Shown here: positions 1 to 64,000 of the stretch, piece by piece
Layout of the letters: each line of letters opens with the position of its first letter
Position numbering within the stretch: the first letter of the stretch is position 1
From: Squalus acanthias
Lineage: Eukaryota
NCBI GenBank assembly: GCA_030390025.1
Contig: JASTWF010000070.1
Coordinates: forward strand, 930,001 to 994,000
Reading direction: 5' to 3'
DNA length: 64,000 bases
Notes under the pieces: model-generated
What the model was told of the DNA's origin: nothing
What the model saw: only the letters and a program-made list of their open reading frames with translations
Databases searched by the model: none
Program-made: the position numbers and the translations under genes

Positions 1-239
1 ATTAAAATTATGGGGCAATACTGAGAGTGTCGGCTGTCAATTTGACTCAGCCACTAAACTAGTGCAATGTATTCCATCATGAGGTTTCACTTGTCCAATA
101 TTCGTCGCATTGGCTGGTTTGTCCTTTCACACCCCGGATTTGATGCTCCTTCATTGTAACTGGGTCAAGTTTCTCATCAGATAATCCCAGAATGTAATGA
201 TTTGACCCAACAGCATTTTCTAAGTGTTTATCTCTGTAG

Positions 240-3200
240 GGTGGTGCAGTCCGAGCCTTCTCGTTGCAATAACTATCTCGGTGATCCTGGTTCTAATATT
301 GATTTTCATTTCCATTTGGAATCATAAAAGCGGCAGATCAGGTGAGAATTGACCTTTAGCAGGAATATTTGAATAAATGTTTGTTTCTCGAAGCGTTAAA
401 TACTAATTATAGTTAATTGTTTCAGAAGAACGAGTCAAGGGACCCCACAAGGAAAGGTAAGTAACTGAACCATTTACAAAGTTCATCAGTAACAGTCTCA
501 CTGTATTTAACACTGTCAAAATCAGTTAACCCCAACTTCAATTTCAATATTTTCCACGTTCTCTTAAGATTGAATCAAAGTCCATTCCGCAATTCTGTTC
601 TCGATATTTATGGCATGTGACCAAGGATTTACAAGAAGTAATGCTTGTTTAACATTTTTGTTTGCATATAGTTTTAGTTTGAGAGAGAGAACGATAAGAG
701 CCGGAAGAAATGAACGACACTCAGGTGAGTTAGATTGAAATGTTGGTGGAGATAGAACATCATTTGTGGATTATTTCAAAGATCAATAAGTTAATTTCCC
801 GCCATCAAAATGTCCTGCCATCGTTCTCCTGTCTGACGAATCTACATAAATGCAAATTATTGGTTATTAATGCTAACAATTATGTATCAGATGGATAATA
901 GACGCCAGACACCGGGGGTGGATGATCCATGTCCATTCATTAGCGTATTGGGGTATCATTAGCATAGTGGGGGATAATTGGCATAATGGGGTATCATTGG
1001 GGTATTGTTGGACAATTAGTGGATTGGGGTAATTGGCGTATTGGGGGATTATTGGCTTATTGGGGTACCATTGGCGTATTGCTGGACCATCGTCGTATTG
1101 TATTGGGGTACCATTGGCATATTGGAGTTCCATTGGCGTATTAGGTGAGCATTGGCTTATTGGGGTACCATTGGCGTATTGCTGGATCATTGTTGTATTA
1201 GTGGACCATTGGCGCATGGTGCCTCTATAAATAAATATAGATTAGCCAGAATTTATGATATTTAAATTCATATTCTAAACTGTTAATACACAGGTGACAC
1301 CCGTCAAATGGATGCGAAGCGGACACATCAGGGTGCAATACATGTAAGTAAGTTCATTGAACCTGTTGCAATAATATACAGGAACTTGGTGATTTCTGGG
1401 ATGGGTGCAATGCGCCACATGCGGGATATTTCATGCGGTTGGCATTGAGCAGGTCATAGTCCAGATCATCTTAATCTGCAGCGAATCCCACTCGTTGCTC
1501 CAACTGGAAACAGAACATATCCTGCAGCCCTCTTCCCATCTGATAATAGAAAGGATAGGTTAATGTTCCGTGTATAATGCTTCACCAGACTTTACTGCGG
1601 ATTTCCAGCAGTTTAAGGTTCTATTTCAGATTTCCAGCTTTTTGCTATTTTCTATTCTTTTTATGTCTACATTGAGTCCATGTCCGCTTCCCCCACAAAC
1701 CCCCGCCCCCTCCCATCCGGCAGAGAAACTGTTTTTAATATATTAGCACAGATATTATTATGAAGATTCAGAAATAAGACGACAAACAGAATAGTTTCAC
1801 AGATAAGATAAAATATGTTTATATTGTAAGTCGTCGAAGAAGGAATCAGTTTGGAGTGAATATGTTTGTGTGTGTGTGAGTGTGTGTGTGAGTGTGAGAA
1901 TGTGTGTGTGTGCGTGTGAGTGGGTGAGTGTGAATATGTGTGTGTGTCAGTGTGAGTGTGACTGAGTGTTTGTGTGTGTGTGAGTGTTTGTGTGTGAGTG
2001 TGTGTGTGAGTGTGTGTGTTTGTGTGAGTGTGAAAGACNNNNNNNNNNNNNNNNNNNNNNNNNNNNNNNNNNNNNNNNNNNNNNNNNNNNNNNNNNNNNN
2101 NNNNNNNNNNNNNNNNNNNNNNNNNNNNNNNNNNNNNNNNNNNNNNNNNNNNNNNNNNNNNNNNNNNNNNNNNNNNNNNNNNNNNNNATTAGAATGTGTG
2201 TGTGTGCGTGTGAGAGTGTGTGTGTGTGTGAGAGTGTGTGTGTGAGTCTGTGAGCGAGTGTCTGAGAGAGTGAGTGTGTGTGTGTATGTAAGAGATTTTC
2301 TGTGTGTGTAAGTGTGTGTGATTGTCAGCCATGACTCAGTGGGTGGCACTCTCACCTCTGGGTCAGAAGGTCATGGGTTCAAGTCTCACTCCAGAGACTT
2401 GCACACAAAAATCTAGGCTGACGCTCCCAGTGCGGTACTGAGGAAGCGCCGTACTGTCGGAGGGGCAGTATGGAGGGAGCGCTGCACTGTCAGAGGGGCA
2501 GTAATGAGGAAGTGCTGCACTGTCGGTGGGGCAGTACTGAGGGAGAGCTGCACTGTCGGACGGGCAGGCCTGAGGGAGTGTTGCGCTGTCGGAGGGGCCA
2601 TACTAAGGGAGTGCTGCATCGTCGCAGGTGCCGTCTTTGAGATGAGATGTTAAATTGAGGCACCGTCTGCCCTCTCAGGTGGACGTAAAAGAACTCACGC
2701 CACTATCTCGAAGAAGAGCATAGGAGAGTTCTCCCTGGGGTCCCCGGCCAATATTTATCACTCAACCAACATTATTAAGAAACAGATTATCTGGACGTTA
2801 TCTCATTGCTATTTTTGGGAGCTTGCTGTGCGCAGACTGGTTGCCACCTTTCCTACATTACAACAGTAACTACAATTCAAAAGTAATTCTCTGCTCCAGA
2901 GGGCTGTGGATGCTCAGTCTTTGAGTATATTTAAGACTGAGATAGATAGATTTTTGGACTCATGGGGAATCAAGGGATATGGAGATCGGGCGGGAACGAG
3001 GAGTTGAGGTCGATGATCAGCCATGATCTTATTGAATGGTGGAGCAGGCTCGAGGGGCCGTATGGCATACTCCTGCTCCTAATTCTATGTTCTTCTGTTC
3101 TTATGATCTTTCAAAGAGCCAGCACAGGCACGATGGACCGAATGGCCTGCTTCTGTGCTGCATCGTTCTATGATTCCATGAAACGCGACTGCATGACGAG

Positions 3201-3349
3201 ATAGTTTGACCTGCCTTTAAGTATCTTGAAATGTCAACGTTTAATATATTTTCCTGTCTCAGGGCGGCCCTCGAGACCAGATACTTTACGCCTCTCTGGA
3301 ATTTGCTGCCTCGGAAAAGTCATCAAAGAAGAAGACGGGTCGCGGATGA
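240..3349 (+). CDS. Gene A paralog, 3' part (TM plus cytoplasmic exons with ITIM); 5' exons lie upstream of the window
   Basis: Exons 240-341 (GWCSPSLLVAITISVILVLILIFISIWNHKSGRS), 426-456, 672-724, 1294-1343 and 3263-3349 (GGPRDQILYASLEFAASEKSSKKKTGRG*). Lengths and phases are identical to gene A. Confidence 0.82.
940..1218. repeat. Minisatellite (~19-20-bp unit ATTGGCGTATTGGTGGACC) in gene A intron 6; paralog 45900-46270
   Basis: Tandem degenerate units; accounts for ORFs 873-1217 and 45965-46319. Confidence 0.85.
1862..2320. repeat. (TG)n/(TGAG)n microsatellite containing N run 2039-2187; paralog 46902-47290
   Basis: Direct observation. Confidence 0.9.
2327..2885 (+). mobile_element. tRNA-derived DeuSINE (SacSINE1-like)
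   Basis: A/B-box head (GACTCAGTGGGTGG..GGGTTCAAGTC) and Deu core; other copies at ~34127-34510, 36405-36870, 47302-47860, 59683-60520, and minus-strand ~15655-15900 and 58750-58990. Confidence 0.8.
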
Positions 3350-8973: not shown

Positions 8974-11900
8974 TCAGAGGGTCGGAACCTCATTAAACGC
9001 CAGGTGGGCGTAAAGAGTCTATGAGAGAAAACAGAAACCATTATCATGGCCCACATCATCATCATAGGAACAGAGGGACAGGAGGAGGCTGTTCAGCCCC
9101 TCGAGCCTGTTCTGCCATTCAATCAGATCATGGTTGATCTGTATCTTAACTGCATCTACCCGCCTTGGTTGCCTAACCCTTAATCGCCTTACTCAACAAG
9201 AATCTATCAAAAATCTCTCAGTTTTGCAATTTCCATTTGACCCCCAGCCTCAGCAACTTTATGGGGGAGAGAGTTCCAGATTTCCACTGCCCTTTGTGTG
9301 AAGAAGTGCTTCCCGACATCACCTGTGAACGGCCTGGCTCTAATTTGAAGGTAATGCCCCTTGTTCTGGACTCCCCCCCCGCCACCACCCCCACCAGAGG
9401 AAATTGTTTCTCTCTATCTACCCTATCGAATCCTTTAATCATCTTAAACATCTCAATTAGATCACCCCTTAATCTTCCATACACAAGGGAATACAAGCCC
9501 GAGTCTGTGCAACCTGTCCTCAAAACTTAGCCCTTTTAGTCCCGGGTATCATTCTGGTGAATCATCATTCTGCAATTTCAAATCTCCAGATCTATATTTT
9601 TTTAATCTACGTTCGCAGTTTTACATAAGAGGAAAACAGTGCTATCCTGTAGTGTTCACTATGCAAAGTTTTATAGACTCGTTGACGATGAATCTTAAAC
9701 ATTGTGTTAAAATAAGTGCAAGGTATCAACATTTAACGATTGCATGGATGAACTACAGAATTTGTTCATCCCTGTCTGGCATAAAAATAAAACAAAAAAG
9801 GTGGCGCAAACGTGGCTAACAAAGGAAATTAGCGATAGCATAAGATCCAAGGGGAGGACTTATTAACTGGCCAGAAAAAGCAGCAAACCTGAGGATTGGG
9901 AGTAGTTTAGGATTCAGCAAAGGAGGACAAAAGGATTAATTAAGAGGGGGAAAATAGAGTATGAGAGTAAGCTTGCAGGGAACATAAAAACTGTCTGTAA
10001 AAGCTTCTATAGATATGTGAAGAGAAAAAGATTGGTGAAGTCATGCATAGGTCCCTTGCAGTCAGAAACAGGGGAATTTATAATGGGGAACAAAGAAATG
10101 GCTGACCAAGTAAATACATAATTTGGTTCTGTCTTCACAAAGAAGGACACAAATAACCTCCCAGAGATGTCGGGGAACATAGGATCTAATGAGAGGGAGG
10201 AACTGAATGAAATCAGTATTTGTAGGGAAATGGTGTTAGGGAAATTGACGGGATTACAGGACGATAAATCCCCAGGGCCTGATAATCTACATCCTAGGGT
10301 ACTTAAGGAAGTGGCCCAAGAAATAGTAGATGCATTGCTGGTCATCTTCAAAAATTCTATAGACTCTGGCACAGTTCCCATGAATTGGAGGGTAGCTAAT
10401 ATAACCCCACTATTTAAAAAAGATGGTAGAGAGAAAACGGGGAATTATAGACCGGTAAGCCTGACATCGGTAGTGGGAAAATGCTAGAGTCCATTATAAA
10501 AGATACAATAGCAGAGCACTTGGAAAACAGTGACAGTATCGGACAAAGTCAACATGGATTTACAAAAGGTAAATCGTGCTTGACTAATCTACTGGAATTT
10601 CTTGAGGATGTAACTGGCAGAATAGATAAGGGAGAACCAGTGGATGTGGTGCCTTTGGACTTTCAGAAGGCTTTCGATAAGGTCCCGCATAAGAGATTAG
10701 CGTATAAAATTAAAGCACATGGGATTGGGGGTAAGGTACTGACTTGGATAGAGAACTGGTGGCAGATAGGAAGCAAAGAGTTGGAATAAACGGGGCGTTT
10801 TCCGAGTGGCAGGTAGTGACTAGTGGGGTACCGAAGGGATCTGTGCTAGGACCACAGATATTCACAATATATATTAATGATCTAGACAAGGGAACTAGAT
10901 GTAATATCTCCAAGTTTGTAGACGACACAAAGCTGGGTGGGCGTGTGTGCTGTGAGGAGGATGCAGAGAAACTCCAGTATGATTTGGACAGGTTGGGTGA
11001 TTGGGCAGATGCATGGCAGATGCAGTATAATGTGGATAAATGCGAGGTTATCCACTTTGGTGACAAAAACAGGAAGGCAGATTATTATCTGAACGGCAAC
11101 AGATTGGGAGAAGGGGAAGTGCAACGAGACCTGGGTGTCCTTGTGCAGCAGTCGCTGAAGGTAAGCATGCATGTGCAGCAGGTAGTTAAGAAGGCAAATG
11201 GTATGTTGGCCCTCATCACGAGACGATTCGAGTACAGGAGCAAGGATTTCTTGCTGCAGTTGTACAGGGCCTTGGTGAGACCAGACCTTGAGTATTGTGT
11301 GCAGTTTTGGTCGCCTTATCTGAGGAAGGATGTTTTTGCCATGGAGGGAGTGCAGCGAAGATTCACCAGACTGATACCTGGGATGGCAGGAATGACGTAT
11401 GAAGAGAGATTGGGTCGATTGGGCTTCTATTCGCTGGAGTTTAGAAGAATAAGAGGGGATCTCATTGAAACCTATAAGGTTCTAACAGGACTAGACAGTC
11501 TCGATGCAGGAAGGATGTTCCCGATGGTGGGGGAGTCCAGAACCAGGGGTGACAGTCTAAAGATAAGGGGTAAGCCATTTAGGACAGAGATGAGGAGGAA
11601 TTTCTTCACCCAGAGAGTGGTGAACCTGTGGAATTCACTAGCACAAAAGGCTGTTGAGGCCAATTCATTAAATATATTCAAGAAGGAGTTAGATATATTT
11701 CTTAAGGCTAAAGGGATCAAGGGATATGGGGAGAAAGCAGGGACAAGGTACTGAATTTGGATGATCAGCCATGATCTCATTAAATGTCGCAGCAGGCTCG
11801 AGGGGCCGAATGGCCTACTCCTGCTCCTATCTTCTATGTTTCTATGTTTCTATGTTAAGCAAAAACAATTCTTTTCATATCTACCTCCTTGTCTTGTGCA

Positions 11901-14900
11901 CGTGGTCTCGAATCCGTCAATTTCTGATCGCTGATCGTGTTGCCTGATATAAAGAGAAACTTAATCTAAGTCTAAATGCACACATTTCACACTGAACCGG
12001 CCCACTAACATGTAATGAGCAAATGACACAATAAATGGATTGATTGGGAGCGCCGTGGAGTTGGAGCGCCTCCCGACAACCGCTACCTGACCGCCGGTTC
12101 CTGCAGCTCCTTCCCGCGGCGACAATAACCATCAGCAGAAGCAGAAGCGCCGCCGCCGAACTCCCGTAAAGCAGTACTCTGCAGTTGGTTTGTTGCGGGC
12201 ACACTGAAGAAAGAACAAAAACCTTTTATTTAAAAACATATCCGTAACCCGAGCCTTCTGGTTCTCGCAGAAAGTTCAAAGAGGCCCAACACCACATTCT
12301 CAAACACTAGGGAGGGAGAATCAATGCCAGACTTACCAGCGTCACCCACATCACGAGAACACATTAAAAATGTTGCTGAAAAATCACTAGATAAGTGAAG
12401 ATAAANNNNNNNNNNNNNNNNNNNNNNNNNNNNNNNNNNNNNNNNNNNNNNNNNNNNNNNNNNNNNNNNNNNNNNNNNNNNNNNNNNNNNNNNNNNNNNN
12501 NNNNNNNNNNNNNNNNNNNNNNNNNNNNNNNNNNNNNNNNNNNNNNNNNNNNNNNNNNNNNNNNNNNNNNNNNNNNNNNNNNNNNNNNNNNNNNNNNNNN
12601 NNNNNNNNNNNNNNNNNNNNNNNNNNNNNNNGCCAGGCAGACAAATAGACAGACAGAACTATATAACCATGAATCTATCGAAGGGTGGGACAAAGAAGGA
12701 GACTGAAAGGCCCTCCATGTTTGTGCCGGCTCTTTGCTAGATGGATCCAAAACTAATCCCATTGCCCGGCTCTCTCTCCATATTCCTGTATCAATCCAAA
12801 ACGAATCCCAAAGCCCACTCTGTCCCCTGGGATGCACCACTTCCAATCCTTCGCCAATCCGAGAAATACCCATTTACCCTATCTCCTTATGTTTTGAATG
12901 TCATCTAACTTTCCATCCATGCTGCCACATCTCCTTCACACCAAACCCCTACATTGTTTCCCAACAGCCTTCTTGTGCGACACTTTATCAAACGCCTCCT
13001 GGAATTCCATACACGTTACATCTACTGCAATCCCTTTAACTATCCAATCGGTCCGTTCCACGAAAGCTCTTTTAAATTTGTTAAACACGACTCCACTTTC
13101 ACAAATCGCTGCTGGTTGTCCTTAACTAGCCCAGCCATTTTTAAATGCTCACCACAGTCAGTTCAAATTACGGATTCTAAGAGTTTGTCCGCAACTCATC
13201 TGATATATGGTAGCCCAAGTGACACCTTTCTCCTCTCTTAGATGAAACGTTAGATAGAATCCGTTTGGGTAGTAAGAATAAGGACATCACATACTCCTTG
13301 GAAAATAAGTGTCTAAATGGAGTAGAGGAGCAGGGAGATCTGGAGGTACAGATACTCAAATCACTAAAAGTAGCGACGCAGGTTAATAAGGCCATAACAT
13401 TGCAAACCAAGCACTGGGGTTCATTTCTAGAGGGATAGAATTGAAAAGCAGAGAAGTTATGTTCAATTTCTGTAGAACCTTGGTTGGACCACACTTGGAA
13501 TACTGTGAACATTTCTGGGTTCCATATTATAAAGAGGATATAGAGACACTGGAGAAGATACAAAATCATTGACTCGGATGATACCAGAATTGAGACGTTA
13601 TGCCTATCAGGAAATATTGAACAGGCTGGGGCTCTTTTCTCTACAAAAGTGAAGACTGAGAGGTGACCTGATAGAGGACTTTAGATTATGAAAGGGTTTA
13701 CATCGGATTACATGGGATATACGGCACAGAAACAGGCCATTCGGCCCAACCAGTCCATGCCGGCATGTATGCTCCACTCGAGCCTCCTCCCGTCTTTCCT
13801 CATCTAAATCTATCAGCTTATCCCTCTATTTTCGACTCCCTTACATGCTTGTCCAGCCTCCCCCTCTAAATGCATCTCTACTATTCGCTTCAACCACTCC
13901 TTGTGGTAGCGAGTTCCACATTCTCACCACTCTATGGGTAAAGAGGTTTGTCCTGAATTCCCTATTGAATTTCTTGGTGACTATCTTATATTGATGGCCT
14001 TTAGTTATGCTCTTCCCCACAAGTGGAAACATTGTCTCTCTATCTACTCTATCAAAAACTTTGACAGGGTCGACGTAGAGAAAATGTTTCCCTTGAGGTG
14101 CGGTGTGGACCAGAACTAGGCGCCATAAATACAACATAGTCACTATTAAAGCCAATTGGGAATTCTGGACAAACTTCTTTACCCAGAGAGTGGTGAGAAT
14201 GTGGAACTCGCAACCCCAGGGAGTGTCTGAATCGAAAAGTATAGATGCATTTAAGGGGAAGTCAGATAAATACATGAGGGAGAAACGAATAGATGGATAT
14301 TGATGGGTTTATAATGAAGTGGGATGGGAGGGGACTCGTGAGGAGCATAAACACCAGCACGGACCTGTTGGACCGAATGGCCTGTCTCTGTGCTGCACAT
14401 ACTGTGTAATACAGATACCTACATACAGGCATCGAGAGAGAAAGTGATAAACTGGAAATGGCAATTATATTTTCCAATTTTACCAATGGACAGCTCAGAC
14501 CAAGACATTCTCTCCGACCATATACGTATGGCCGAGCTAAACAGATGGACTTTATAATTCAGAAAGCTCAACACTGCTACATTGAGAGGGGTAAATGATA
14601 GGGTAATTCTACATGGAGAGGCAGAAAGGGAGAGACTTTGAATGTATAAAGTGATATTGCTAACAATTAACTCTTACATCAGCATGGAAGATATTAGTAA
14701 AGGGTCACTGCCACTAGTTACCTCTCTGAGATGAGACACTTTCACTGATCAAATCCCCAGGGGAGTTGATTGGAACGGCGCAAGTACAGACAGCGCCGCT
14801 GCACCAAGTTTCCACCGAGACGCTGATGTGACTCCTGACAGTGTAGGTCCCGTCCGGGTCTATTGTCCCGGAATCGCTCGGTCCCTCGGTAACCCGTCCG

Positions 14901-31395: not shown

Positions 31396-31440
31396 GGCGT
31401 TTAGACAATCAGCGCATCTATTGACACCAATGTGTCACAT

Positions 31441-47400: not shown

Positions 47401-48175
47401 GCCAGTGCAGTACTGAGGAAGCGTCGCACAGTCGGAGGGGTATACTGAGGGAGCGCTGTAATGTCAGAGGGGCAGTACTGAGGGAGTGCTGCACTGTCAG
47501 AGGGGCAGTACTAAGGGAGCACTGCACCGTCGCAGGTGCCGTCTTTGAGATGATATGTTAAATTGAGCCCCATTCTGCCCTCTCAGGTCGACGTAAAAGG
47601 ACTCACGCCACTATCTCGAAGAAGAGCATAGGAGAGTTCTCCCTGGTGTGCTTGGCCAATATTTATCCCTCAACCAACATTATTAAAAAGACAGTTTATC
47701 TGGAAATTATCTCATTGCTCTTTGTGGGAGCTTGCTGAGCGCAGACTGGCTGCCACGTTTCCTACATTACAACAGTAACTACAATTCAAAAGTATTTCAT
47801 TGGCTGTAAAGCGCTTTGGAGCGTGCTGAGGTCATGGAAGATGCTGTGGAAATGCAAGTCTATCTTTCTTTTAGGACGTGTGATGGCGTGTGATTCTGTC
47901 TGGGTATGATTGATTGTGTGTGTGTCATTGAGTGTGAGTGTGAGTGTATTTGAGTGTGTAATTGAGTTTGTGTGTGCAATATTCTGTCTGGGTATGATTG
48001 ATTGTGTGTGTGTCTTTGAGTGTGTGAGTGCATGTGATTATGTCTGATTATGATTGATTGAGTGTGTCTGTGATTGATTAAGTGTCAGCATGTGTGTGAT
48101 TATATCTGGGTATGATTGATTATGTGTGCGTCATTGAGTGTGTGAGTGCGTGTGCTTCTGTCTGGGTGTGATTGA

Positions 48176-48210
<35 letters not shown>

Positions 48211-49079: not shown

Positions 49080-49412
49080 GAACCCGGAGGGTTTCTATCC
49101 GATGGATGCGGGCGGAGACAGGACTTACAAAAGAACCCACAGCCTGCTGGAAAAAGAATGGAGCCACGGAGAATCCCGTCAAACGTCTAAACTATCTGCC
49201 TGCACTCGCCAGAGTTTGCAAAAACTCTTTCTCTTCAATGTAACGAACGTGCTTTGAGTATTGTAAAGATACTCCACTGCATTAGTGTAATTCAAGTGTG
49301 AGACAAACATTAAGAGCAGGGACTTCTCGGTTTGGTGTTTCTCTGAACCTTTCCTGCTCATCCTGCAGCTCCAGTTAATAACAAGATTTTCGTTTGCAAA
49401 TGCTTGTGTATT

Positions 49413-49418
49413 AATAAA
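49413..49418 (+). terminator. Candidate polyA signal of gene A (paralog 4819-4829)
   Basis: Overlapping AATAAA motifs ~330 nt after the stop, conserved in both copies. Confidence 0.5.
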
Positions 49419-49534
49419 ATAAAATTTTCTCCGAATTTAAAGATGCACGAGAGGTTCCTTTCGACCAATACTTCACTTATATTTAAATGTGATCAGGATA
49501 AAACTTCAATGACTATTGAGGTGACAATATCGGT

Positions 49535-50176
49535 TTATTGCAAGGGGGTTGGAGTATAAAAGCAGGGAACTCCTGCTACAACTGTACAGGATATTGTTGA
49601 GACCACACCCTGAGTACTGCGTACAGTTTTGGTCTCCTTAGTTAAGGAAGGATATACTTTCATTGGAGGCTGTTCAGAGACGATTCACTAGGTTAATTCC
49701 AGAGATGAGGGGGTTGACTTATGAGGAAAGGTTGAGCAGATTGGGCCTATACTCATTGGAATTTAGAAGAATGAGAGGGGATCTTATTGAAACATCTAAG
49801 ATATTGAGGGGGCTCGACAAGGTAGATGCAGAGAGAATGTTTCCCCTCGTGGGGAAATCTAGAACACGGGGGCATAGTTTCAGAATAAAGGTTCGCCCTT
49901 TTAGAACTGAGATGAGGAGGAATTTCTTCTCTCAGATTGTCGTAAATCATTGGAATTCTCTTCCCCAGACAGCCGTGGAGGCTGGGTCATTAAATAAATT
50001 TAAGGTGGAGATAGACAGATTTTTACAAGATAAGGGAGTCAAGGGTTATGGGGAGTGGACAGGGAAGTGGCTTTGAGCCCAAGATCAGCCATGATCTTAT
50101 TGAATGGCAGAGCAGGCTCGAGGGGCCAAGTGGCCTATTCCTGCTCCTATTTCTTAACTTCCTATGTTCTTATGTC
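49535..50176 (+). mobile_element. CR1 LINE 3' fragment specific to copy 2
   Basis: ORF 49663-50076; empty site at ~4940 in copy 1. Confidence 0.88.
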
Positions 50177-53100
50177 CTGAATTAAGATACTTTTAGTGGC
50201 GATATCCTCTGTCTGAGAAGCGAGATGCTTAATCATTTACAGACTAAGAACACAACAGGAGAGATTCGCGGACAGAGATGCGGGGAATTGTGCCTGGTTC
50301 AATTTGACCTTTGGGGTAGTGTGTTTTGCTATATGTAGTAATGTCAAAACTACATGTCAGAGACAGATGGTGAGTGCAGCGTGGCTTGGGAGGAATGGGT
50401 GATATTGGACCTGTGGTTTTCTAAAGCTCTCCACCACTGGGGTTTGCTTACGTCAGGTCTGGGTCTGTTGTGGACTCGTGGGTAGGGATGGATTGCCATG
50501 ACAACCCCATTATCATTGTATCATGCGACCACCAGGATGGTAGAAGGTGAACTCGGTGGACCTTGGCCTTTTTCCGTCTAGCAATTCCTATGTTCAAGAT
50601 CCCAGGTATGCACAGTATTGGGCGAGAATATTCAACCAGAGACAGGATTGCACCATAGGTGGTTATATTGCTTTATCCATCAGAGTCAGATCAGTCTAAG
50701 TATTCCCCTGCTGATTAGTTTGGAATTAGCATGTACAACCGAATGAGATCCAAGAGCAGCAAAAACTGTTCCTGGCAAAGACCCTTTCAAATCCATCTCC
50801 CAGTATCTGTCCAATAAATCATATGAGGATTTGAATAAATTCCTAACAACCGTGTTCTTCTTAATGTTAGTTTATACTGTAGGGTTCTATAAAGCAGATC
50901 TAAGTTCACCAGGACGATACCGGGGCAAAGAGGGTTACATTCTAAGAACAAGTTGCATAGAGTAGGCTTGTATTATTTTGAGTTTAGAAGATTAAGGTGA
51001 ACTAATTGAGATGTTAAAGATGATTAAAGGATTCGATAGGGTAGATAGAGAGAAACTATTTCCTCTGGTGGGGAGAGTCCAGAACAAGAGGGCAGGATCT
51101 TAAAATGAGAGCCAGGTCGTTCAGGGGTGATGTCAGATGCACATCTTCACACAAAACCTAGTGGAAATCTAGAACTCTCTCATCCAAAAAGTTGTTGAGG
51201 CTGGGGGTCAATTGGAAATATCAAAACTCAGGTTGATAAATTTTTGTTGGGTAAGGGTATTAAAGGTTACGGAAACAAGGCGGGTAAATGGAGTTAAGAT
51301 ACAGATCAGCCGCGATCTAATTGAATGGTGGATCAGTCTCCAAAGGCTGAATGGCCTCCTCCTGTTCCAATGTTCCTGTCGCAAGTAGGATAATTAGTTC
51401 GGACGACTAAAAGGCAAGTTGAAGACTGATTTTTGGAGGTTCATCACACAAAGAGTGATCAGCACATGGAATGGTCCTCTTGGTGGGGTGGTGTGAATGA
51501 AAACCCCTGGAGTCATTTAGGAAACAGTTTGGCTGCCCTGATGGGCGAGAAGGTCAGAACCTTTCTGGATTCCTGAGCTAAGTTTGGCAGAATGGCTTTT
51601 TTCACCTGCAGTGATCTTGTGACAAGTGTCTCCAAATACGCTTTGCAATAACTGTGCAGAATATTTTGACAGCAGAATATTGTTAATTTCGGCTAGTTTC
51701 TATCCCCTCGGTACATGAATTACAAGAGATTCTCGATGAGATCAGAGCCTAATAAACAGCTCCATTATCCATTAATCACCACACCAACGGCCTCATACCC
51801 AGCTTTTAAATGTGTATGAAATCGAAGGTGTGCCCGAAAAATATCACAGCATCTCAGCGAAACAGCCTTTGAATTTTACTCTTGTATTTGACAGATTTCC
51901 TAATGTGAAGAGCGTATTGTGTTACCGCTGCGAATTATTAGCATCACCAGCAAAACGCTTTCAGTCACAGCCGAAGGGTTCTGCTTTACAAAGTTACGAA
52001 GTGTTCACAGCACAGAAACAGGCCATTCGGCCCCACTGGTCCGTGCCGGGGTTTCTGCTCCACACCAGCCTCCTCCCACCCCCCTTCATCTCACCCCATC
52101 AGCATAGCCTTCTATTCCTTTCTCCCTCATGTGTTTATCAAGCTTCCCCTTAAATGCATCTATGCTATTCGCCTCAACCACTCCCTGTGGCAGCGAGTTC
52201 CACATTCTCACCACTGTCTGGGTAAAGAGGTTTCTGCTGAATTCCTTATTGGATTTATTAGTGACTATCTTATATTTATGGCCCCTAGTTCTGGTCACTT
52301 CACAAGTCAAAACAACTTCTCTTCCTATCAAACCCTTTCATAATCTTAAAGGCCTCGATCATGTCACCCCTCAGCCTTCCCTTTTCAGGAGAAAAGAGCC
52401 CCAGCCTGTTCAATCTTTCCTGATGTGTATAACCTCTCAGTTCTGTATCATCCGTGTACATCTTTTTTGCACCTTCTCCAGTGCCTCTATATCCTTTTTA
52501 TAATATGGAGACCAGAAGTGTGCACAGTGTTCCAAGTGTGGTCTAACCAAGGTTCGATACAAGTTCAACATATCTTCTCTGCTTTTCAATTCTATTCCTC
52601 TAGAAATGAAACCCAGTGCTTTGGTTGGCTTGTTTTAATGTCCTTGTTAACCTGTGTCGCTACTTTTAGTGATTTGTGTACCTGCACCCCAGATCCTCTA
52701 CCCCATATCAAAACGTATTTTCTGAGAACTAATAGAAACTAATAGTGGGTAAAAGCCACCATAAATTTGGTGACGAAATCACTTAACTGCATTATTAAAA
52801 AAGAGCAGATAGATTTAAAATAATCTACTTTCAATTATAAATGTGACAGAGTTCACTCGTAGGACAGAAGCAGAGAACGTTCGGGATCCAGTTACACAAG
52901 AACATAAAAAATAGTAGCAGGAGTCGGCCAAGCGGCCCCTCGAGCCTGCTCCGCCATTCAATAAGATCATTGCTGATTTTTTACCTCATCTCCACTTTCC
53001 TGCACTATCGCCATATCCCTTGATTTCCTTGGAGTCCAAAAATCTATCGATCTCTGTTTTGAATATACTCAACGACTGAGCCTCCACAGCCCTCTGGGGT

Positions 53101-54226
53101 AGAGAATTTCAAAGATTCACCATCCTCTGAGTGAAGAAATTTCTCCTCACCTCAGTCCTAAATGGCCGACCCCTTATTCTGAGACTGTGACCTCTTGTTC
53201 TGGACTCCAAAGCCAGGGGAAACATGCTCCCAGCATCTACCCTGTCAACCCCTGTAAGAATTTTGTATGTTTCAATGAGATCACCTCACATTCTTCTAAA
53301 CTCCAGCTTTAATATCAATGCAGCCTAAATCCGGAGGCAGTGCCTGAGCTGCCCAGTCGGTCCTGAGCCCCACTTTTGAACCGCATACATTTACTCTATA
53401 AATGTGCATTGTAAATCGGCGGTAGAGATACACTGAGCGCATCTGGACTGAACGATCAAAGGGCTGGAATCACAAACACAATGCTGGAGTTTGAAAAACC
53501 TGTTTTATTGCGTTTGTAACTCGGACACTGATGCATTGTAAAGATTATTTGAATTATATCGTGCTCACATACAAAGACGCGAAATGATTCTAAAAACGCC
53601 AATACAGGACAGGAGAAGCATGTCGAGATTGAACCGAAGCTGCAGGCGATGTGTCATCTTAAGAGTAGCGGACGATGTGTAAGAGAGAATTTAAATATGT
53701 TTAGAATTTCCGCTTTGGGCCGAAATTTGCCATTTGCAAAATGCGCTTGAATTTGCGCCGGTTCTATTCGGCGTTAAGACTGTGCAGTAGACGATACGCC
53801 GTTACTGCATTGATCAGTATGTCTTTCGAGTGAGTGTTAATTATTGATAAATGTGCATCAAGTCGGTAAGAGAACGTGAGATCGCCGCAGTGAGACATCA
53901 ATGAAGATAGCAATTGAACACTTTAGCTTCACGTCACTGCTTCCAATAGTCGGATTTCTGCCGTGCTTTGGGACTTGAACACGGCGTATCAAAGTCTCTC
54001 GGAAGGGTTCACACCTCAGGGCTCTACTGCGCTGGTTGGTCTTCTGAATGAGATTGCCAATTTCCTGTCAATGGATCCCAAATGCACGCGGAAGCGGCAC
54101 ACAATTGAGGAACTGCAGGCTTGAATTGTTACTGAGCAGCGTGTCGTACTGATCCCACAATGAGAGCAAAGCAGAGGGAACTTTCCACAACACGTCATAT
54201 CCGGCAGGCGCTCGCTTTCCTTTCCG

Positions 54227-57200
54227 TCAGAGGGTCGGAACCGCATTAAACGCCAGGTGCGCGTAAAGAGTCTATGAGAGAAAACATAAACCATTATCAT
54301 GGCCCACATCATCATCATACGAACAGAGGGACAGGAGGAGGCTGTTCAGCCCCTCGAGCCTGTTCCGACATTCAGTCAGATCATGGCTGATCTGTATCTT
54401 AACTCCATCTACCCGCCTTGGTTGCCTCACCCTTAATCCCCTTACCCAACAAGAATCTATCAAAAATCTCTCAGTTTTGGATATCCAATTGACCCCCAGC
54501 CTCGACAGCTTTATCGGGGAGAGATTTCCAGATTTCCATCACCCTTTGTGTGAAGAAGTACTTCCTGACATCACCGCTAAACGGCCTGGCTCTAATTTTA
54601 AGGTGATGCCCCCTTTGTTCTGGACTCCCCCCACCAGAGGAAATAGTTTCTGTCTATCTACCCCATCAAATCCTTTAAACATCTTAAACACCACCATTAG
54701 ATCACCCCTTAATATTCTATACTAGAAGGAATATAAGCCTAGTCTGTGCAACCTGTCCTCATAACTTGGCCCTTTTAGCCCCGGGTATCACTCTGGTGAA
54801 TCATCATTCTGTAACTTAAGATATCCAGATCTATATTTTTTAATCTACGTTCGCAGTTTTACATTAAAGGAAAACAGTGCTATCCTGCAGTGCTCACGAT
54901 GCAAAGTTTTATAGAATCATTAATTATGAATCTTAAACATTGGGTTAAAACCAGTGCAAGTTATCGACTTATGTTGAGCAAAAACAATTATTTTCATAAC
55001 TACCTCCTTGTCTTGTGCACGTGGTCTCGAATCCGTCAATTTCTGATCGCTGTTCGTGTTGCCTGATATAAAGAGAAACTCAATCTAAGTCTAAATGCAC
55101 ACATTTCACACTGAAAGGACCCACTAACATGTAATGAGCAAACAACACAATAAATGGATTGATTGGGAGCGCCGTGGAGTTGGAGCGCCTCCCGACAACC
55201 GCTACCTGACCGCCGGTTCCTGCAGCTCCTTCCCGCGGCGACAATAACCACCGGCAGAAGGAGAAGCGCCGCCGCCGAACTCCCGTAAAGCAGTAACCTG
55301 CAGCTGGTTTGTAGCGGGGGCTCTGAAGAAAGAAAAAAAACTTTATTTTTTTTAAAACCCGTAACCCGAGCCTTCTGGTTCTCGCAGAAGGTTCAAGGTG
55401 GCCCAACACCACCTTCTCAGGACCACTAGGGATGGACAATCTATGGCAGACTTACCAGCGTCACACACACCACGAGAACAAATTAAAAATGTTGCTGAAA
55501 ATCATTNNNNNNNNNNNNNNNNNNNNNNNNNNNNNNNNNNNNNNNNNNNNNNNNNNNNNNNNNNNNNNNNNNNNNNNNNNNNNNNNNNNNNNNNNNNNNN
55601 NNNNNNNNNNNNNNNNNNNNNNNNNNNNNNNNNNNNNNNNNNNNNNNNNNNNNNNNNNNNNNNNNNNNNNNNNNNNNNNNNNNNNNNNNNNNNNNNNNNN
55701 NNNNNNNNNNNNNNNNNNNAACCTATCGAAGGGTAGGGCACTGAAGGAGACTATAAGGCCCTCCATGTTTGTGCCGGCTCTTTGGTAGATGGATCCAAAA
55801 CCAATCCCATTACCCGGCTCTCCCTCCATATTCCTGTATCAATCCAAAACTAATCCCAAATCCCACTCTGTCCTTTGGAATGCACTAGTTACCACCCATC
55901 GCCGATCTGAGGAATACCCATTTACCCTATCCCCTTATTTCTTGTCTGTCATCTTACTTTCCATCCAGGCTGCCACATCTCCTTCACACCATACGTCTAT
56001 ATTGTTTCCCAACAGCCTTCTTGTGCGACACCTTTTCAAACGCCTCCTGGAATTCCATACACGTTACATCTACTGCAATCCCTTTAACTATCCAATCGGT
56101 CAATTCTACAAAAGCTCTATTAAATTAGTTAAACACGACTCCACTTTCACAAATCGGTGCTGGTTGTCCTTAACTAGCCCAGCCATTTAGAAATGCTCAC
56201 CACTTTCATTTCAAATTACGGATTCTAAGCGTTTGTCCGCAACTCATCTGATCTATGGTAGCCCAAGTGACACCTTTCTCCTCTCTTAGATGAAACGTTA
56301 GATTGAATCCGTTTGGGTCGGAAGAATAAGGAGGTCACATACTCCTTTGAAAATTAGTGTCTAAACGGAGTAGAGGATCAGTGGGATCTGGAGGTACAGA
56401 TACACAAATCACTAAAATTAGCGACGCAGGTTAATACGGCCATAAAAAAGCAAACCAAGAACTGGGGTTCATTTCTAGAGGGATAGAATTGAAACGCATT
56501 AAATAATGTTCAATTTCTATAGAACCTTGGTTAGACCACACTTGGAATACTGTGAACATTTCTGGGCTCCATATTATAAAGAGGATATAGAGACACTGGA
56601 GAAGATACAAAAAGATTTACTAGGATGATATCAGAATTGAGACATTGTACCTATCAGGAAAGATTGAATAGGCTGGGGCTCTTTTGTCTACAAAAGTGAA
56701 GACTGAGAGATGACCTGATAGAGGAATTTAGGTTATGAAAGGGCTTACAGAGGATTACATAGGATATATGGCACAAAAACAGGCCATTCGGTCCAACCAG
56801 TCCATGTCGTCGTTTATGCTCCACTCGAGCCTCCTCCCGTCTTTCCTCAACTAAATCTATCAGCTTGTCCCTCTATTCCCTTCTCCCTCATACGCTTAGC
56901 TCGCCTCCCCTTAAAATGCATCTATACTATTCGCTTCAGACACTCCCTGTGGTAGCGAGTTCCACATTCTCACCACTCTCTGGGTAAAGTTGTTTCTCCT
57001 GAATTACCTTTGGATTGCTTGGCGACTATCTTATATTGATGGCCTCTAGTTATGCTCTTCCCCAGAAATGGAAACATTCTCTCTCTATCTACTCTATCAA
57101 AACCTTTGATAGGGTAGACTTGGAGAAGTTGTTTCCCTTGTGGTGCGGGGGAGACCAGAACTAGACGCCATAAATATAAGATAGTCACTATTAAAGCCAA

Positions 57201-59206
57201 TTGGGAATCCTGGAGAAACTTCTTTACCCAGAGATTGGTGAGAATGTGGAACTCGCTACCACAGGGAGTGGTTGAGGCGAATAGTATAGATGCCTTTAAG
57301 GGGAAGTTCGATAAACAGATGAGGGAGAAAGGAATAGATGGATATTGATGGGTTTATAATGAAGTGGGATGGGAGGGGACTCGTGTGGAGCATATACACC
57401 GGCACGGACCTGTTGGGCCAAATGGTCTGTCTCTGTGCTGTACATACTGTGTAATACAGATACCTACATACAGGCATCGAGAGAGAAAGTGATAAACTGG
57501 AAATGGCATTATACTTTCCAATTTTACCCATGGACAGCTCAGACAGATTCCTTCTCTCCCAACATATAAGTATGGCTTAGCTGGAAAAATTGACTTTTAT
57601 AATTCAGAAAGCTCAACCCTGCAACATTGAGAGAGGTAAATGATTGGGTAATTCTACATGGACACGCAGAAAGGGAGTGACTTTGAATGTAAAAAGTGAT
57701 ATTGCTAACAATTAACTCTTACATCAGCATAGAAGATATTACTGAAGGGTCACTGCCACTAGTTACCTCTCTGAGATGAGACATTTTCACTGATCAGATC
57801 CCCAGTGGAGTTGATTGGAACGGCGCAAGTACAGACAGTGCCGCTGCTCCAAGTTTCCGCCGAGACGCTGATGTGACTCCTGACAGTATAGGTCCCGTCC
57901 TGATCTATTGTCCCGGAATCGCTCGGTTCCTCGGTAAACTGTCCGGAAACATTCCAGCGAATGGGAATGGAATCGGGAGACAGGCTTTTCACCAAACACA
58001 TCAATGGGACCCTTTCCAGCGAGGGAATTTCATCTGGCGGCGGAGCTAAGAGAAAGATTTCCGGAGACCCTGCGGAGTTTGGGGGGTTAAAATACCATTA
58101 ATATTCTACGTAAATTCGTCGTTATTTATGATAAAATGAGTGAAGCAATCGCAATTCTTACCTGCAATGAACAATTTCGAGCCGTTTCCGAATATCAAGG
58201 GCATTCCGCTAGATTTCTTAGCTGCGCAGTAATACACCCCCGCATCATTCCTCTGGACATCTTTCACAATCAGAGAGTAAATACTGGATTCGTTGTTAAC
58301 CTGTCCGGAAAATCTTCCTTCAGGCGGCATGTGCTTCCACACGGTGTAAACTAGCTGTAGATGCTCTCGGTGCTGTCGCTTATACCAAAGTACAGCTCTT
58401 GCTGCTAACCAACCCGTGTGACAATCCACCTTAAAGATACTTCCAACGGAGACAGTCTGAACCGGCGAATTCTGCCGGAAAACTTCCTGAGAGACAATAA
58501 CTGAGAGAAGAACATATTCACAAGAGGGTCTGTTACACGGCAGAAATAAACACCGCTTCCTAAAAAGAAACGGGTACAGTGTTAAACTGTGAATAGGACC
58601 ATCCGATCATTAATGATCATGGATCCTAATATCTAAATGAGTCAAAAGCTGGGGGTTAAAATTGAGCCAATGAAATGAAGGAAGGAAGAATGAAAGAAAG
58701 AATGAAAGAGAGAAAGAAAGAAAGCAAGAAAGAAAGAAGGAAATAAAGAAAGATCTTTACAGCCAATGAAATACCTTTTGAAGTGTAGTCACTGTTGTAA
58801 TGTAGGAAACGCGGCAGCCAAATTGCGCACAGCAAGCTTCCACAAACAGCAATGTGATAATGACCAGGTAATCTGTGATGTTGATTGAGTGATATAATAT
58901 TGGCCCCAGGATACCGGGGAGAACTCCCCAGCTCTCCTTCCAATAGTGGCCGTGGGATCTTTTACATCCACCTGAGAGGACAGACGGGACATCCGATAGA
59001 TGGAAAATATTGACATTTGGTCTAATTTAATTCGCCTGAGATAATCCAGTCCTTCAACAGGACACTAATATTAGAGAATAAAGCGCGCACTCTTCTACTT
59101 GTCTGACTAGCTCAATGATCTTACGCCGGAATTCCGCCATGAAGTTAATGCACATACACTGACCTGGAAAGAGATGGAACAGCGGGCAGGGAGTTAAGAA
59201 GCTCAT
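54227..59206 (-). CDS. Gene B copy 2 (complete): non-rearranging VJ-C1-TM receptor, 301 aa
   Basis: Exons 59164-59206, 58162-58500 ([24 protein letters not shown]), 57767-58069, 55206-55322 ([31 protein letters not shown]), 55004-55062 and 54227-54271 ([14 protein letters not shown]). All have the same lengths as in copy 1 and the frame is open. Confidence 0.87.
57767..58069 (-). CDS. Gene B copy 2 C1 exon
   Basis: ORF 57759-58004, extended in frame to the acceptor. Confidence 0.9.
58162..58500 (-). CDS. Gene B copy 2 VJ exon
   Basis: ORF 58106-58429; FGNG J motif; donor GTAAGA. Confidence 0.9.
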
Positions 59207-61399
59207 TGTCTGCGACCGAGGCGCTTGCTGTGAGCTGCACACTGAACACTTTGCTGGGATATCTTTGCGCTGGGCCCGGCTCGCAAGAGATGTGAAAGGC
59301 ACAGCTGCGGAAATTGCGTGCTTGCGTTTTAAAAATAGCAGGCCTGGAAAATACAGCGTAATGTCAAGACTGGCTGCGGGTTTCCTGTTGACACATTAAA
59401 CGCCCACGCACAGGTTTGCCTGCAAAGGGCAATACATTCCAATTCGTGTTAAACAGGCGTGAAAGGCGGCGTGCAGTGCAGGCTGATTAAACTGTGAACT
59501 GAAGGCAGGCAGCGCTGAATTGCAAGCACCGGATTGGTTGTGTCATTCGCGTGGGCGCGAGGAAATGATTATATCCCGAGTGTTGCTTCTTATTGGTCCA
59601 GAACGCATTCATTCATACACCCTTACTTGTACCAACAAAAATAGGCCAGATTGAAGAAAGGTGCAATCATCTGTTATTATACCAGCCGCGGCTCAGTGGG
59701 CAGCACTCTCGCCTCCGAGTCAGAAGGTCGTGGGTTCATGATTTCTCTCCAGAGACTTGAGCACAAAAATCTAGGCCGACACTCCAGTGCCAGTATTGGG
59801 ACGTGCTATAAGATGTGACAGTCTTTCTTTCTTTTACTATTTCACCCAGTATCTGAATGCCGCCTGTCTCTTTGTAGCAGGATTTGATTCTGTTACTTAT
59901 GCTGTGTCAGCCGTGGCTCAGTGGGTAGTGCTCTCGCTTCTGAGGCAGAAGATCAGAGTTTTGTTCAGGTCCCGCTCAAGAGACTGAGCGCCGCACTGTC
60001 GGAGGGGCAGAACTGAGGGAGCGCTGCACTGTCGGAGGGGCAGTACTGACGGAGCGCCGCACTGTCGGAGAGGCAGCACTGAGGGAGCGCTGCACTGTCG
60101 GAGGGGCAGTACTGAGGGAGCACCGCACTGTCGGAGGTGCCGACTTTCGGATGCAACGTTGAACCGAGGCTCCATCTGCCCTCTCAGGTGGATGTGAAAG
60201 ATCCCAGGGCCACTATTGGAAGAAGAGATGGGGTAGGTCTCCCCGGTGTCCTGGGCCAATATATATACCTCAATTAACATCAACAAAAGCGATGTCCTGA
60301 TGATTATCACATTGCTGTTTGTGGGAGCTTGCTGTGCAAAAATTCACAGCCGTAATCACTGCATTACAACAGTGACTACAGCTCAAAAGTACTTCATTTT
60401 CTGTAAAGCGCTTTGGGACGTCCTGAGGTCGTGAAAGGAGATTCTTAAAAGCAATTTCTATCTTTCGTTCTTTGGGACGTCCTGAGGTGGTGAAAGGCGC
60501 TATAGAAATGCAAGTTCTTCCTTACCTCTTGCCCCAGGTTTTACTCCGGCGTGTTATTAACCAAACCTCGCCGCTGGGTGAGCATCATTTATGGGCACTG
60601 AGTGCGATTTTTGCCGCGCTCCTGTTCTTATTTACACGCTCAGCCTCCTGGTTCCTGGATTCTGCGCCCCTCTCATCGCCGCTGCACCATAAGGCGCAAT
60701 TCACATCTTGATTGCGTCAATGTTTTGCAACACATTCTTGTTGTGTCAGATACTGTGTCTGAGCAATCAAATACTGCATTAATATTGAATACCTTGACTT
60801 TGATAAATATTGAAGCAAAGTTGCCAATATTATATTTGGTGTATCAAACAATAATGAGGTTTGAACCTTTGGTATTTTGCACATAGGTAGCTGATATTTT
60901 ACCCGTTGCATTCAAAAGCAATCAATTAAAAAGACTTGTGTCCATCGGAGTCCCTTGTAATGGGAGTGAGTGCGGGGAAGGGTCGCTCCCTTTGAATTCT
61001 ACACATGTAAAATGAGCAGCAAGAGGGTTTGTGTGTTCAGGTTCTATATAATTACAACGAATGGACAGTTTGTCAATTAAATTAGAGCCAGGCCGTTCAG
61101 GGGTGATGTCAGGAAGCAATTATTCACACAAAAGGTAGTGCCAATCTGGAACTCTCTCCCCGAAAAAGCTGTTGAGGCTGGGGGTCAATTGAAATCTCAA
61201 AACTGAGATTGATGGATTTTTGTTGGGTAAAGATATTAAGGGTCACGGAAACAAGGCGGTTCGCTGGATTTAAGATACAGATCAGCCATGATCTAATTGA
61301 GTTGAGGGACAGACACGAGGGGCTGAATGGCCTCCTACTGTTCCTATGTTCATGGACTTTAATCTTTGTATCAAACCTGTACGGAGTCGGCAAGAAAGT

Positions 61400-61670
61400 A
61401 AGAAAAGCCCAGTACTGCAATTTCAAAGTTTATTAGAAGGACACAGCCTCCTTACTGTGTTTTGTCAGTGGTGTTTCCTCGAACCGGAATGCTATTTTCT
61501 GGGATGTTTCCGGACGGGGTTACAGAGCGACGCACCGATTCCCGGTACAATAGACGCGGACGGGACCTACGGTAACAGAAGTCACATCAGTGTCTCGGTG
61601 CAAGCTTGGAGCAGCGGCGCTGTCTGTAATTTGTGCTGTTCCACTAGACTTCCCCAGCTAAAATATGGAG
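61400..61670 (+). pseudogene. Degenerate C1 exon, duplicate of 18470-18730
   Basis: Same sequence with the same frameshift pattern (GTIDADGTYGNRSHISVSVQAWSSGAVC). Confidence 0.8.
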
Positions 61671-64000
61671 ACGAGCGTGTCGGGGAAAACTGTAGAGAAA
61701 GCCAGGAAAGAGTGAGAGATGTGCAAATGGCCCTTTCACTGCAACCCCTTCACTACATCTAATTACATAGAATGTGCAGCAAAGAAACAGGCCATTCGGC
61801 CCAACAGGTCTATGCCGGTGTTTATGCTTCACACGAGCCTTCTCCCATTCTTTTACATCTCACCCTATCAACATATCCTTCTATTCCTTTCTGCCTCACG
61901 AGTTTGTATAACTTCTCCTTAAATGCATCTATGCTATTTGCCTCAACCACTCCCTGTGGTAGCGAGTTCCACATTCTAAACACACTCTGTAAAAAGAAGA
62001 TTCTCCTGAATCCCCTATTGAATTTATCAATGACTATCTTATATTTAAGTGACTGAAATGATTGTGTGCCTTTCTGAGATGGTCTCCCCTAGAAGTGGAA
62101 ACATCTCCTCTATGTCTACCTTATCAAACACTTTCATAATCTTAAATACCTCTGTCAGGTCACCCCTCAGCCTTCTCTTTTCTAGAGAAAAGAGACCCAA
62201 CCTGCTCTATCTCTGTAGATGTTGAGAGGCTGTTTCCCCCTGGCTGGAGAGTCTAGAACCTGCGGTCACAGTCTCAGAATAAGGGGTCGGCCATTTAGGA
62301 CTGAGATGAGGAGAAATTTCTTCACTCAGAGGGTGGTGAATCTTTGGAATTCTCCATCCCAGAGGGCTGTAGATGCTCGGTCGTTGAGTATATTCAAGAT
62401 AGAGATCGATAGATTTTTGAATATTAAGGGATCCAGGTATATGGGGATAGTTCAGGAAAGTGGAGATGAGGTAGAAGATTAGCCATGATCTTATTGAATG
62501 GCGGAGCAGGCTCAAAAGGCGGAATGGTCTGCTCCTGCTCCTATTTCTTATGTTCTTATGTACCACTCTATAATCCACAATCTTCCACCATCAAAGTACT
62601 TGAATATTTCATAATAATAATGTAAAACAACATTCATTTTATCGCTCTGACATCCCAACGACTCATTAACTATTTCCAGTCAATTAGATTCAAAACAGAG
62701 TAATGACTCAATTTTTTAGTAGCTGAAACTTAGAGCTGAATGGGGTGGTTTACTTAACCAAACGCCCCCTGGAGGCAACATGTGATAAGGATGTGTGTCT
62801 GATGGCGTTTCTCTATCACCCCCTGGCGACTCCTTTTCATAATTTGGAGCTGAGGTTTGGAAGCAGCGTGAGCACCACTTCCTTCCTGTGACTCCCAGAT
62901 ATCTTGCAATGTTCAATAGAGAATGATACCCACAATGCACAATCAATTCAGGACTTCAGTGGAGCCCGTAGTGGTGGAACGGTCGTTCGTGGTGAATGTT
63001 GTTCTGGGATGCTGGTATCCCAGTCTCTGTAAAGGAGAATAATCAGGGGTGTAAACTCTGCTGGCCTGTATCCTAACTGTCACCAAGTCCTGTTCACCCA
63101 TCACCCCCTGTGCTCGCTGACCTACATTGGCTCCCAGTCCGGCAACACAGCACTCCTCTCAGGGGTCCGGTTCGGCCACAATTCCCGATGAGTATTACAC
63201 GTTACTGTGAGATGGAAACTGATTTGTAGTATGCCTAACTTTTGAGTATAGAAGCGCCCCATAACACGTGGGAGATATCCCAGCCCTAGGCCAGCTTCAG
63301 AGTAGAGTCAAAAAACGTCAGGAGATGGAATTACCATTAAAGACCGGAGAAAGCTGGAGAGATTGGAGTAAAATCACTCACTGTTGAGCATATGGAAGCA
63401 CATGCAATAAACGGCACAAGAGACCAAACCAAACGCTTGTGCGGGCAAAAAGGGTGAGAGTTGCACAGACTAGGCTAGAATCCCATTGAATATAGAAGAT
63501 TAAGGGGCGATTTAATTGAGGTGTTTAAGATGATTAAAGGACTCGATAGGGTAGAGAGAGAGAAACTATTTCATCTGGTGGGGGTGTCCAGAACAAGGGG
63601 CATCACCTTAAAATTTGAGTCAGGCCGTTCAGGGATGATGTCAGAAAGCACTTCTTCACACAATAGGTAGTGGAAATCGGGAACTCTCTCCCCCAAAAAG
63701 ATGTTGAGGCTGGGTGTCAATTGCAAATTTCAAAACTGAGATTTGATACATTTTTGTTGGGTAAGGGTATTAAGGGTTACGGAACCAAGACAGGTAGATG
63801 GAGTTAAGATACAGATCAGCCATGATCTAATTGAATGGAGGAATAGGTTCGAGGTGCTGAATGGCCTCTTCCTGTTCCTATGTAACAGGCTTGAGGGGCT
63901 GAATGGCCTCTTCCTGTTCCTGTGTAACAGGCTCCTGGGGCTGAATGGTCTCCTCCTGTTCCTGTGATCCGAACTGGGAAAATAAGATGCACGATTCTCT

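Follow-up and report, generated by a model that had tools for sequence, protein, structure and literature searches.

A germline-joined sigma-2-type light-chain array interleaved with paired VJ-C1 receptor genes of predicted inhibitory function in Squalus acanthias

PRARP and VJC1 are reportedly pairs of non-rearranging genes in which the variable (V) and joining (J) parts are joined, with a V-C1 layout outside birds (C1 being a constant-type domain), tails carrying immunoreceptor tyrosine-based inhibitory or switch motifs (ITIM/ITSM), products that form disulfide-linked homo- or heterodimers, and expression in B and T cells. Relatives are said to occur in non-teleost bony fish, amphibians and reptiles, and the chicken chains to have two tyrosine motifs. 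The accounts are reportedly those of Fu et al. 2019 (J Immunol 202:1992) for PRARP1 and PRARP2 and of Ohta et al. 2019 for the Xenopus VJC1 genes. Here we describe 64,000 nucleotides from Squalus acanthias (the window, positions 930001-994000 of contig JASTWF010000070.1, here C3553, in a 3.7 Gb genome), which hold two receptor genes of this general shape, called A and B, and an immunoglobulin light-chain (IgL) gene. The window most likely belongs to a birth-and-death array in which germline-joined IgL genes of the sigma-2 type alternate with a tail-to-tail A/B pair predicted to encode a disulfide-linked inhibitory heterodimer.

Two other systems invite comparison. The sigma-2 light chains of cartilaginous fish (NS5, type I, sigma-cart) have first and second complementarity-determining regions (CDR1, CDR2) of 8 and 7 residues according to PMC5985310; in PMC5192425 the skate genes are germline-joined, the nurse shark has three expressed genes and a pseudogene, and the horn shark genes are split (PMC4279169 and PMC2193156 also treat sigma-2). 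[quoted passage not shown] The literature searched, which includes a mention of PRARP in PMC10751288, gave no account of an interleaved sigma-2/receptor array, although Fu 2019, Ohta 2019 and their supplements might mention shark orthologues or an IgL link.

The genes of the window are listed below; the exon models of A and B were guided by RefSeq models of other sharks (L, leader; C, constant; TM, transmembrane; cyt, cytoplasmic; aa, amino acids).

240-3349, forward: gene A copy 1; TM exon, three cytoplasmic exons and ITIM exon (ILYASL), with L, V and C1 before the window; complete stop-free model, 339 aa
41418-49079, forward: gene A copy 2; 8 exons, 341 aa, all GT/AG, no stops
Gene A copy 2, 5' exons, forward: L 41418-41472, VJ 42114-42440, C1 42531-42851, TM 45187-45288
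Gene A copy 2, 3' exons, forward: cyt 45387-45417, 45635-45687 and 46348-46397; ITIM exon 48993-49079
8974-16112, reverse: gene B copy 1; 6 exons, 301 aa, all GT/AG, no stops
Gene B copy 1 exons, reverse: L 16070-16112, VJ 15117-15455, C1 14722-15024, TM 12087-12203, cyt 11885-11943, tail 8974-9018 (TLYAHL)
54227-59206, reverse: gene B copy 2; 6 exons, 301 aa, intact model, all GT/AG, no stops
Gene B copy 2 exons, reverse: L 59164-59206, VJ 58162-58500, C1 57767-58069, TM 55206-55322, cyt 55004-55062, tail 54227-54271
22972-27834, reverse: germline-joined sigma-2-type IgL; L 27786-27834, VJ 27288-27640, C 22972-23300

A and B, oriented tail to tail, each encode a V-set and one C1-set domain (Pfam), the single C1 exon being followed by a TM exon. 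Both chains have a juxtamembrane Cys on the outer side, lack a basic residue in the centre of the TM segment and carry one ITIM-like tyrosine motif each (ILYASL in A, TLYAHL in B). The J motif of B keeps FGxG, whereas that of A is a degenerate LxNG without the phenylalanine. A scan of the 91 A, B and IgL V exons on C3553, and of the 80 bases that follow each, revealed no recombination signal sequence (RSS). Read from their sequence, A and B are non-rearranging VJ-C1-TM receptor genes.

The pair shares with PRARP/VJC1 a single-exon VJ without RSS, a V-C1-TM layout with an ITIM-like tail and the arrangement as two linked paralogues, with A-type and B-like proteins in lungfish, paddlefish, sturgeon, caecilian, turtles and lizards. 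It differs in being amplified about 20-fold, in being interleaved with about 50 IgL genes, and in having one tyrosine motif per chain where the chicken chains reportedly have two. A/B is probably the elasmobranch form of PRARP/VJC1. The L-VJ-C1-Cys-TM layout and the predicted two-chain V-V/C-C pairing are also those of TCR alpha/beta and gamma/delta, but A and B lack RSS and the central basic TM residue for CD3, and have longer tails with an inhibitory motif of their own. A sequence search of the PDB returned generic antibody and TCR V matches only. With UrIg and UrIg2 the pair has in common a non-rearranging VJ in a single exon, the C1 type of domain and a split leader. Identity with UrIg or UrIg2 was considered and rejected, as A and B have one C1 exon and then a TM exon rather than three or more C1 exons; they moreover have ITIM-like tails, are multicopy and are located elsewhere. 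Three A/B locus-tag prefixes were absent from both supplements of PMC12227049 that were searched; its table S1 puts one sigma-prime IgL close to the IgH/TCR complex of the white shark.

B2, a further receptor type besides A and B, has a V 44-51% identical to that of B, a TM exon of its own and a tail reading QILYARL. Some of its copies are broken, and B2-like proteins are also present in sawshark and sawfish. Orphan A-type TM exons stand upstream of A in several units, and these, together with the orphan C1 exons, may be the remains of a lost A/B-family gene.

C3553 at 105759, 131691, 1067606, about 1227.8 kb and about 1339.9 kb, and C24 near 48.887 Mb: B2 V exons
18496-18715, forward: orphan broken A/B-type C1 exon between B and IgL; second copy near 61437-61651, similar sites in other units

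The IgL genes are L-VJ-C clusters whose single C1 exon ends in a terminal Cys. They resemble sigma-2 in having one V, J and C per cluster, an octamer promoter, and CDR1 and CDR2 of 8 and 7 residues, the sigma-2 signature (counted by hand on IMGT-style landmarks, with reference lengths from PMC5985310). They are germline-joined like the skate genes in PMC5192425, and differ in that a shark here has 48 joined copies and that non-Ig receptor genes surround them. Their C exon is only 39-53% identical to other IgL-like C exons of the genome, and in a quick tree, built without a named sigma-2 reference, they group with the IgL of stingray gene model P0087 (support 100). The junction has the same length in 25 of 26 complete IgL genes, suggesting that germline joining took place mainly once and that amplification came afterwards; the remaining complete gene, at C3553:502112 on the reverse strand, is three residues longer and possibly records a second such event. 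A perfect octamer lies upstream of 45 of the 48 IgL, 10 of the 21 A and none of 15 B genes (about 230 bp before the ATG in gene A copy 2), and for A this is a weak hint of B-cell expression.

The IgL gene of the window, with V and J joined in one exon, carries a 1-bp frameshift in VJ and an imperfect octamer. On its C side all eight best partners are B-proximal copies, and on its V side seven of the eight best matches are A-proximal IgL genes, so that it is likely a crossover hybrid whose C side derives from a B-proximal copy and whose V side derives from an A-proximal one. Two further IgL genes of the array type lie at C24:46.638-46.647 Mb (L151-L152), 2 Mb from an array-like unit on that contig: one is apparently both split and in decay and has at its J an RSS-like site with a 23 spacer, and the other is divergent and joined, with 66% V identity. 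Other clusters of Ig C1 exons, from light-chain and heavy-chain-like loci, are on contigs separate from the array (C13:52.9-54.8 Mb, C19:4.6-4.7 Mb, C75, C3243 and C29:16.7-17.7 Mb).

A first-pass annotation of the window had read it as part of a tandem array of units of 43-45 kb, each with IgL, A and B. The repeat on which this was based is as claimed: self-BLAST gave collinear blocks of 85-94% identity, from 1-1868 against 44949-46901 to 19548-21206 against 62241-63882, the offset drifting from about 45.7 to about 42.7 kb, and global alignment of 1-21240 with 44949-64000 gave 90.8% identity (14,930 matches, 1,520 mismatches, 78 gaps). Eight copy-specific insertions of at least 150 bp, among them a piece resembling a long interspersed nuclear element (LINE) of 2.1 kb at 9731, agree with the view that this is not a simple assembly duplication.

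1-21240: repeat copy 1 (A tail and B), from self-BLAST and global alignment
44949-64000: repeat copy 2 (A tail and B), running past the window end into the next IgL gene
9767-11854 and 29316-31396: CR1-like LINE reverse-transcriptase fragments, the first private to repeat copy 1

Homology does continue beyond both ends, as had been noted: the left flank (-14.4 kb to 0, negative coordinates being bases before the window start) aligns to window 30.4-44.9 kb at 84-91%, and the right flank (64001-66671, at least 2.7 kb) to 21241-23914 at 92%. The gene A exons expected before the start are there, with L, V and C1 at -2871 to -1454 (V and C1 1.5-2.2 kb before the start), and so is the IgL C exon expected about 1.7 kb past the end, at 65716-66037, with a frameshift. 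The two copies are non-sisters, each having relatives of 93-98% identity elsewhere in the array: copy 1 resembles units at 764-880 kb (94-99%), and copy 2 resembles units at 333-353, 405-480 and 574-594 kb (91-97%).

Exons were mapped in the first 1,464,000 bases of C3553, with sequence taken in to 1,664,000. The array spans C3553:8k-1.39M (1.39 Mb) and holds 21 A V exons, 22 B-type V matches, 48 IgL VJ exons and 50 IgL C exons. The B-type matches correspond to 17 B genes (an insertion interrupts two of these) and three B2 genes, with two more B2 genes found separately (five in total). Models are complete and stop-free for 11 of 21 A genes, 9 of 22 B-type V matches and 26 of 48 IgL genes. In the usual unit a forward A is followed by B and two IgL genes, all in reverse; the array is inverted near 380 kb. 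Spacing from one A to the next was measured over 20 intervals, with a median of 59.3 kb and a range of 44.3-116.4 kb, that of the window (44.3 kb) being the shortest. The intervals hold one to five IgL genes, with two IgL C exons in 12 of the 20 intervals and one in the window. The predicted tandem array is real, but its period of 43-45 kb is atypical and IgL is usually present twice; a fixed 44 kb period is ruled out by the spread of intervals. Judged on the assembled contig, two periods of this birth-and-death array, which is 1.39 Mb long in all, make up the window. Further A/B/IgL units, mostly broken and 88-90% identical to the main array, lie on C185 (525-535 kb and 760-820 kb) and C3349.

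Duplicated blocks, defined as chained blocks of at least 93% identity, include three with IgL, A and B (100 kb inverted, 98.1%; 74 kb, 98.8%; 48 kb, 96.4%), about ten with A and B only and two over 25 kb with IgL only. Distances between units (medians 5.4% for A and 6.5% for B) are correlated between A and B (Mantel rho 0.57, p=0.0002, 15 units). The array was likely built by unequal crossing-over, in which misaligned crossovers would copy blocks of 20-100 kb. A and B would stay together through their closeness and probably because they encode two chains of one receptor. Breakpoints would often fall in the near-identical IgL genes and change their number per unit (one to five); an unequal crossover between the two IgL genes of misaligned units would account for the hybrid in the window, the loss of one IgL gene and the short period.

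Relatives of A and B are multicopy in horn, basking, cat, zebra, epaulette, bamboo, whale and smooth-hound sharks, as well as in several rays; databases call them 'Ig kappa light chain-like', 'uncharacterized' and the like. The stingray gene model P0087 fuses a B-type receptor to its joined IgL. A sawfish B2-type protein, XP_051901910, is next in accession number to XP_051901911, listed as IgLS2 in PMC12227049, accession order being only a hint of adjacency. The A/B/IgL neighbourhood seems to exist also in rays. Full-length relatives that came up in a profile search belong to lungfish, coelacanth, gar, paddlefish, sturgeon, caecilian, turtles and lizards (20 named among the 150 matches listed). 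In a quick tree of 46 rows the A and B copies of the array genome each form their own clade, and elasmobranch A joins the A type of bony vertebrates (SH-aLRT 94). A third V-C1-TM group falls outside both clades (P0138, P0166, P0185, P0199 and P0168; coelacanth, lungfish, gar and sturgeon), several members having a tyrosine tail motif.

The juxtamembrane Cys is invariant from shark to turtle (24 aligned proteins of A type and 23 of B type, without exception). A structural model of the catshark A and B ectodomains scored 0.63 against 0.16 for the best control, with both Cys in the interface, agreement between runs in at least 67% of contacts and a partner pLDDT of at least 79. This mark was reached by 51 of 78 solved pairs and 2 of 108 mismatched pairs, antibody-like chains being outside the calibration. 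On balance we favour the view that A and B together would form a two-chain inhibitory receptor. The predicted disulfide-linked heterodimer would bind ligand via CDR-like loops diversified by gene duplication instead of RAG, and would signal through SHP-type phosphatases. Contigs from four presumed-RNA runs of other organisms cover the repeat-free C1 bin of A in four of four cases and its TM bin in three of four; no A splice was seen in them, repeats swamping the joint tables, and the B V/C bin was uncovered, which is uninformative.

Several of our results weigh against this reading, and we set them out here with the alternatives. The dimer model was made on catshark orthologues, not on array copies, and its pass may reflect likeness to the V-C1 pairs of antibody fragments (Fab) and TCR. 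The link of elasmobranch B to the bony-vertebrate B type is weak in the quick tree. About half of the array gene copies are broken. A and B might then be independent single-chain or homodimeric inhibitory receptors, or a decaying family hitch-hiking neutrally on the IgL expansion, which we regard as unlikely while giving it more weight than the other alternatives. Ratios of nonsynonymous to synonymous change (dN/dS), which are pairwise and non-independent, speak for both sides. Within the array they are near 1 for most of A, with 1.2 in its C1 and 3.0 in its leader, and the B loops (1.2) show no excess over dS; the loss of the FGxG phenylalanine from the A J motif also fits decay. Nevertheless, ratios are 0.46 in the B C1 and 0.49 in the B framework, the CDR-like loops of A (2.8; bootstrap dN-dS 0.02-0.18) exceed the A framework (0.83), the A+B model passes its controls, and conservation from sharks to turtles extends to the pair itself, its Cys and its tyrosine tail.

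It is improbable that the array is a strict cassette of about 44 kb, amplified as a unit, with IgL functionally tied to the receptors through shared regulation or a partner chain. The blocks that duplicate all three genes, the adjacency of B and IgL in the stingray gene model and the octamers upstream of IgL and of some A genes would suit it. The first-pass annotation had likewise proposed that the receptor pair and IgL were amplified together, and for A and B, which are tightly coupled, and for the blocks of 48-100 kb with all three genes this stands. It does not extend to IgL as a whole: distances between IgL genes show little relation to those of A or B (Mantel rho -0.09 to 0.24), so that 'one cassette' is only partly true of the array. 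Co-history was unsupported in three of four comparisons and marginal in one (p=0.046), and IgL genes seem to have been reshuffled partly on their own. The one to five IgL genes per interval and the IgL-only duplications also argue against a cassette, as does gene status: in 11 of 15 units A and B agree in being intact or broken, and in the window intact A and B flank a frameshifted IgL.

A few units may be allelic, which would make the unit count slightly too high. The highest block identities reach 98.8-99.6%; 1-75 kb matches 223-297 kb at 98.8%, and a 67 kb unit at C24:48.84-48.91 Mb, which starts at a 200-N gap, matches 109-178 kb at about 99%. That the repeat is largely an assembly artefact, with haplotypes or uncollapsed alleles placed in tandem, is very hard to credit despite these blocks, given the median distances between units, the 17 of 21 A genes that lie between the nearest assembly-type gaps (277 kb and 1,361 kb; four N stretches that fall within the window are of uncertain nature) and the many A/B copies in other sharks and rays. 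For the window pair itself, two haplotypes in tandem are ruled out by a divergence too great for alleles (90.8% identity), by kilobase-sized private insertions and by closer relatives elsewhere in the array. For the PEX11 exon at 1.47 Mb (contig right end), the genome holds no second copy that is near-identical.

The genes seen beyond the array are dermatopontin-like, PEX11, perilipin, RAS-like, TLR2-like, methyltransferase and MRPL24. The RAS-like open reading frame (ORF) could be given no specific name, and 150 lower-ranked flank ORFs had no Pfam match (198 of 498 candidate ORFs were outside the scan). The TLR2/TLR1-family gene, a long leucine-rich-repeat frame followed by a Toll/interleukin-1 receptor domain frame (L174:7954-10000 and L175:1-566; C3553 at about 1.60 Mb), sits between the RAS-like gene and the methyltransferase/MRPL24 pair. 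PEX11B, RRNAD1 and MRPL24 are genes which we take to mark human 1q21-23, the CD1 region, and the PEX11, MRPL24 and methyltransferase genes of the flanks would fit that region.

With one V and one C1, the A/B pair is shaped like a TCR or light chain, and stands among real light-chain genes as an expanded family; shark IgL gene counts and automatic annotations are unreliable in this region. Single-exon VJ-C1 genes have been sought as relatives of the gene that took in the invading RAG transposon (PMC12227049). We suggest, tentatively and with doubts that outweigh our confidence, that elasmobranchs may possess a two-chain inhibitory receptor repertoire, TCR-shaped and encoded in the germline (here about 10 intact A by 9 intact B chains, their CDR-like loops diversified), amplified with joined sigma-2 in an ancient locus of CD1-region type kept since the shark-ray split. 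If so, this would be a second antigen-receptor complex joining a true Ig isotype to non-rearranging relatives, and a candidate for the neighbourhood of the RAG-invaded gene. The array makes it possible to test whether the chains pair freely, what ligands they bind, which cells carry them and whether the link to sigma-2 is ancestral.

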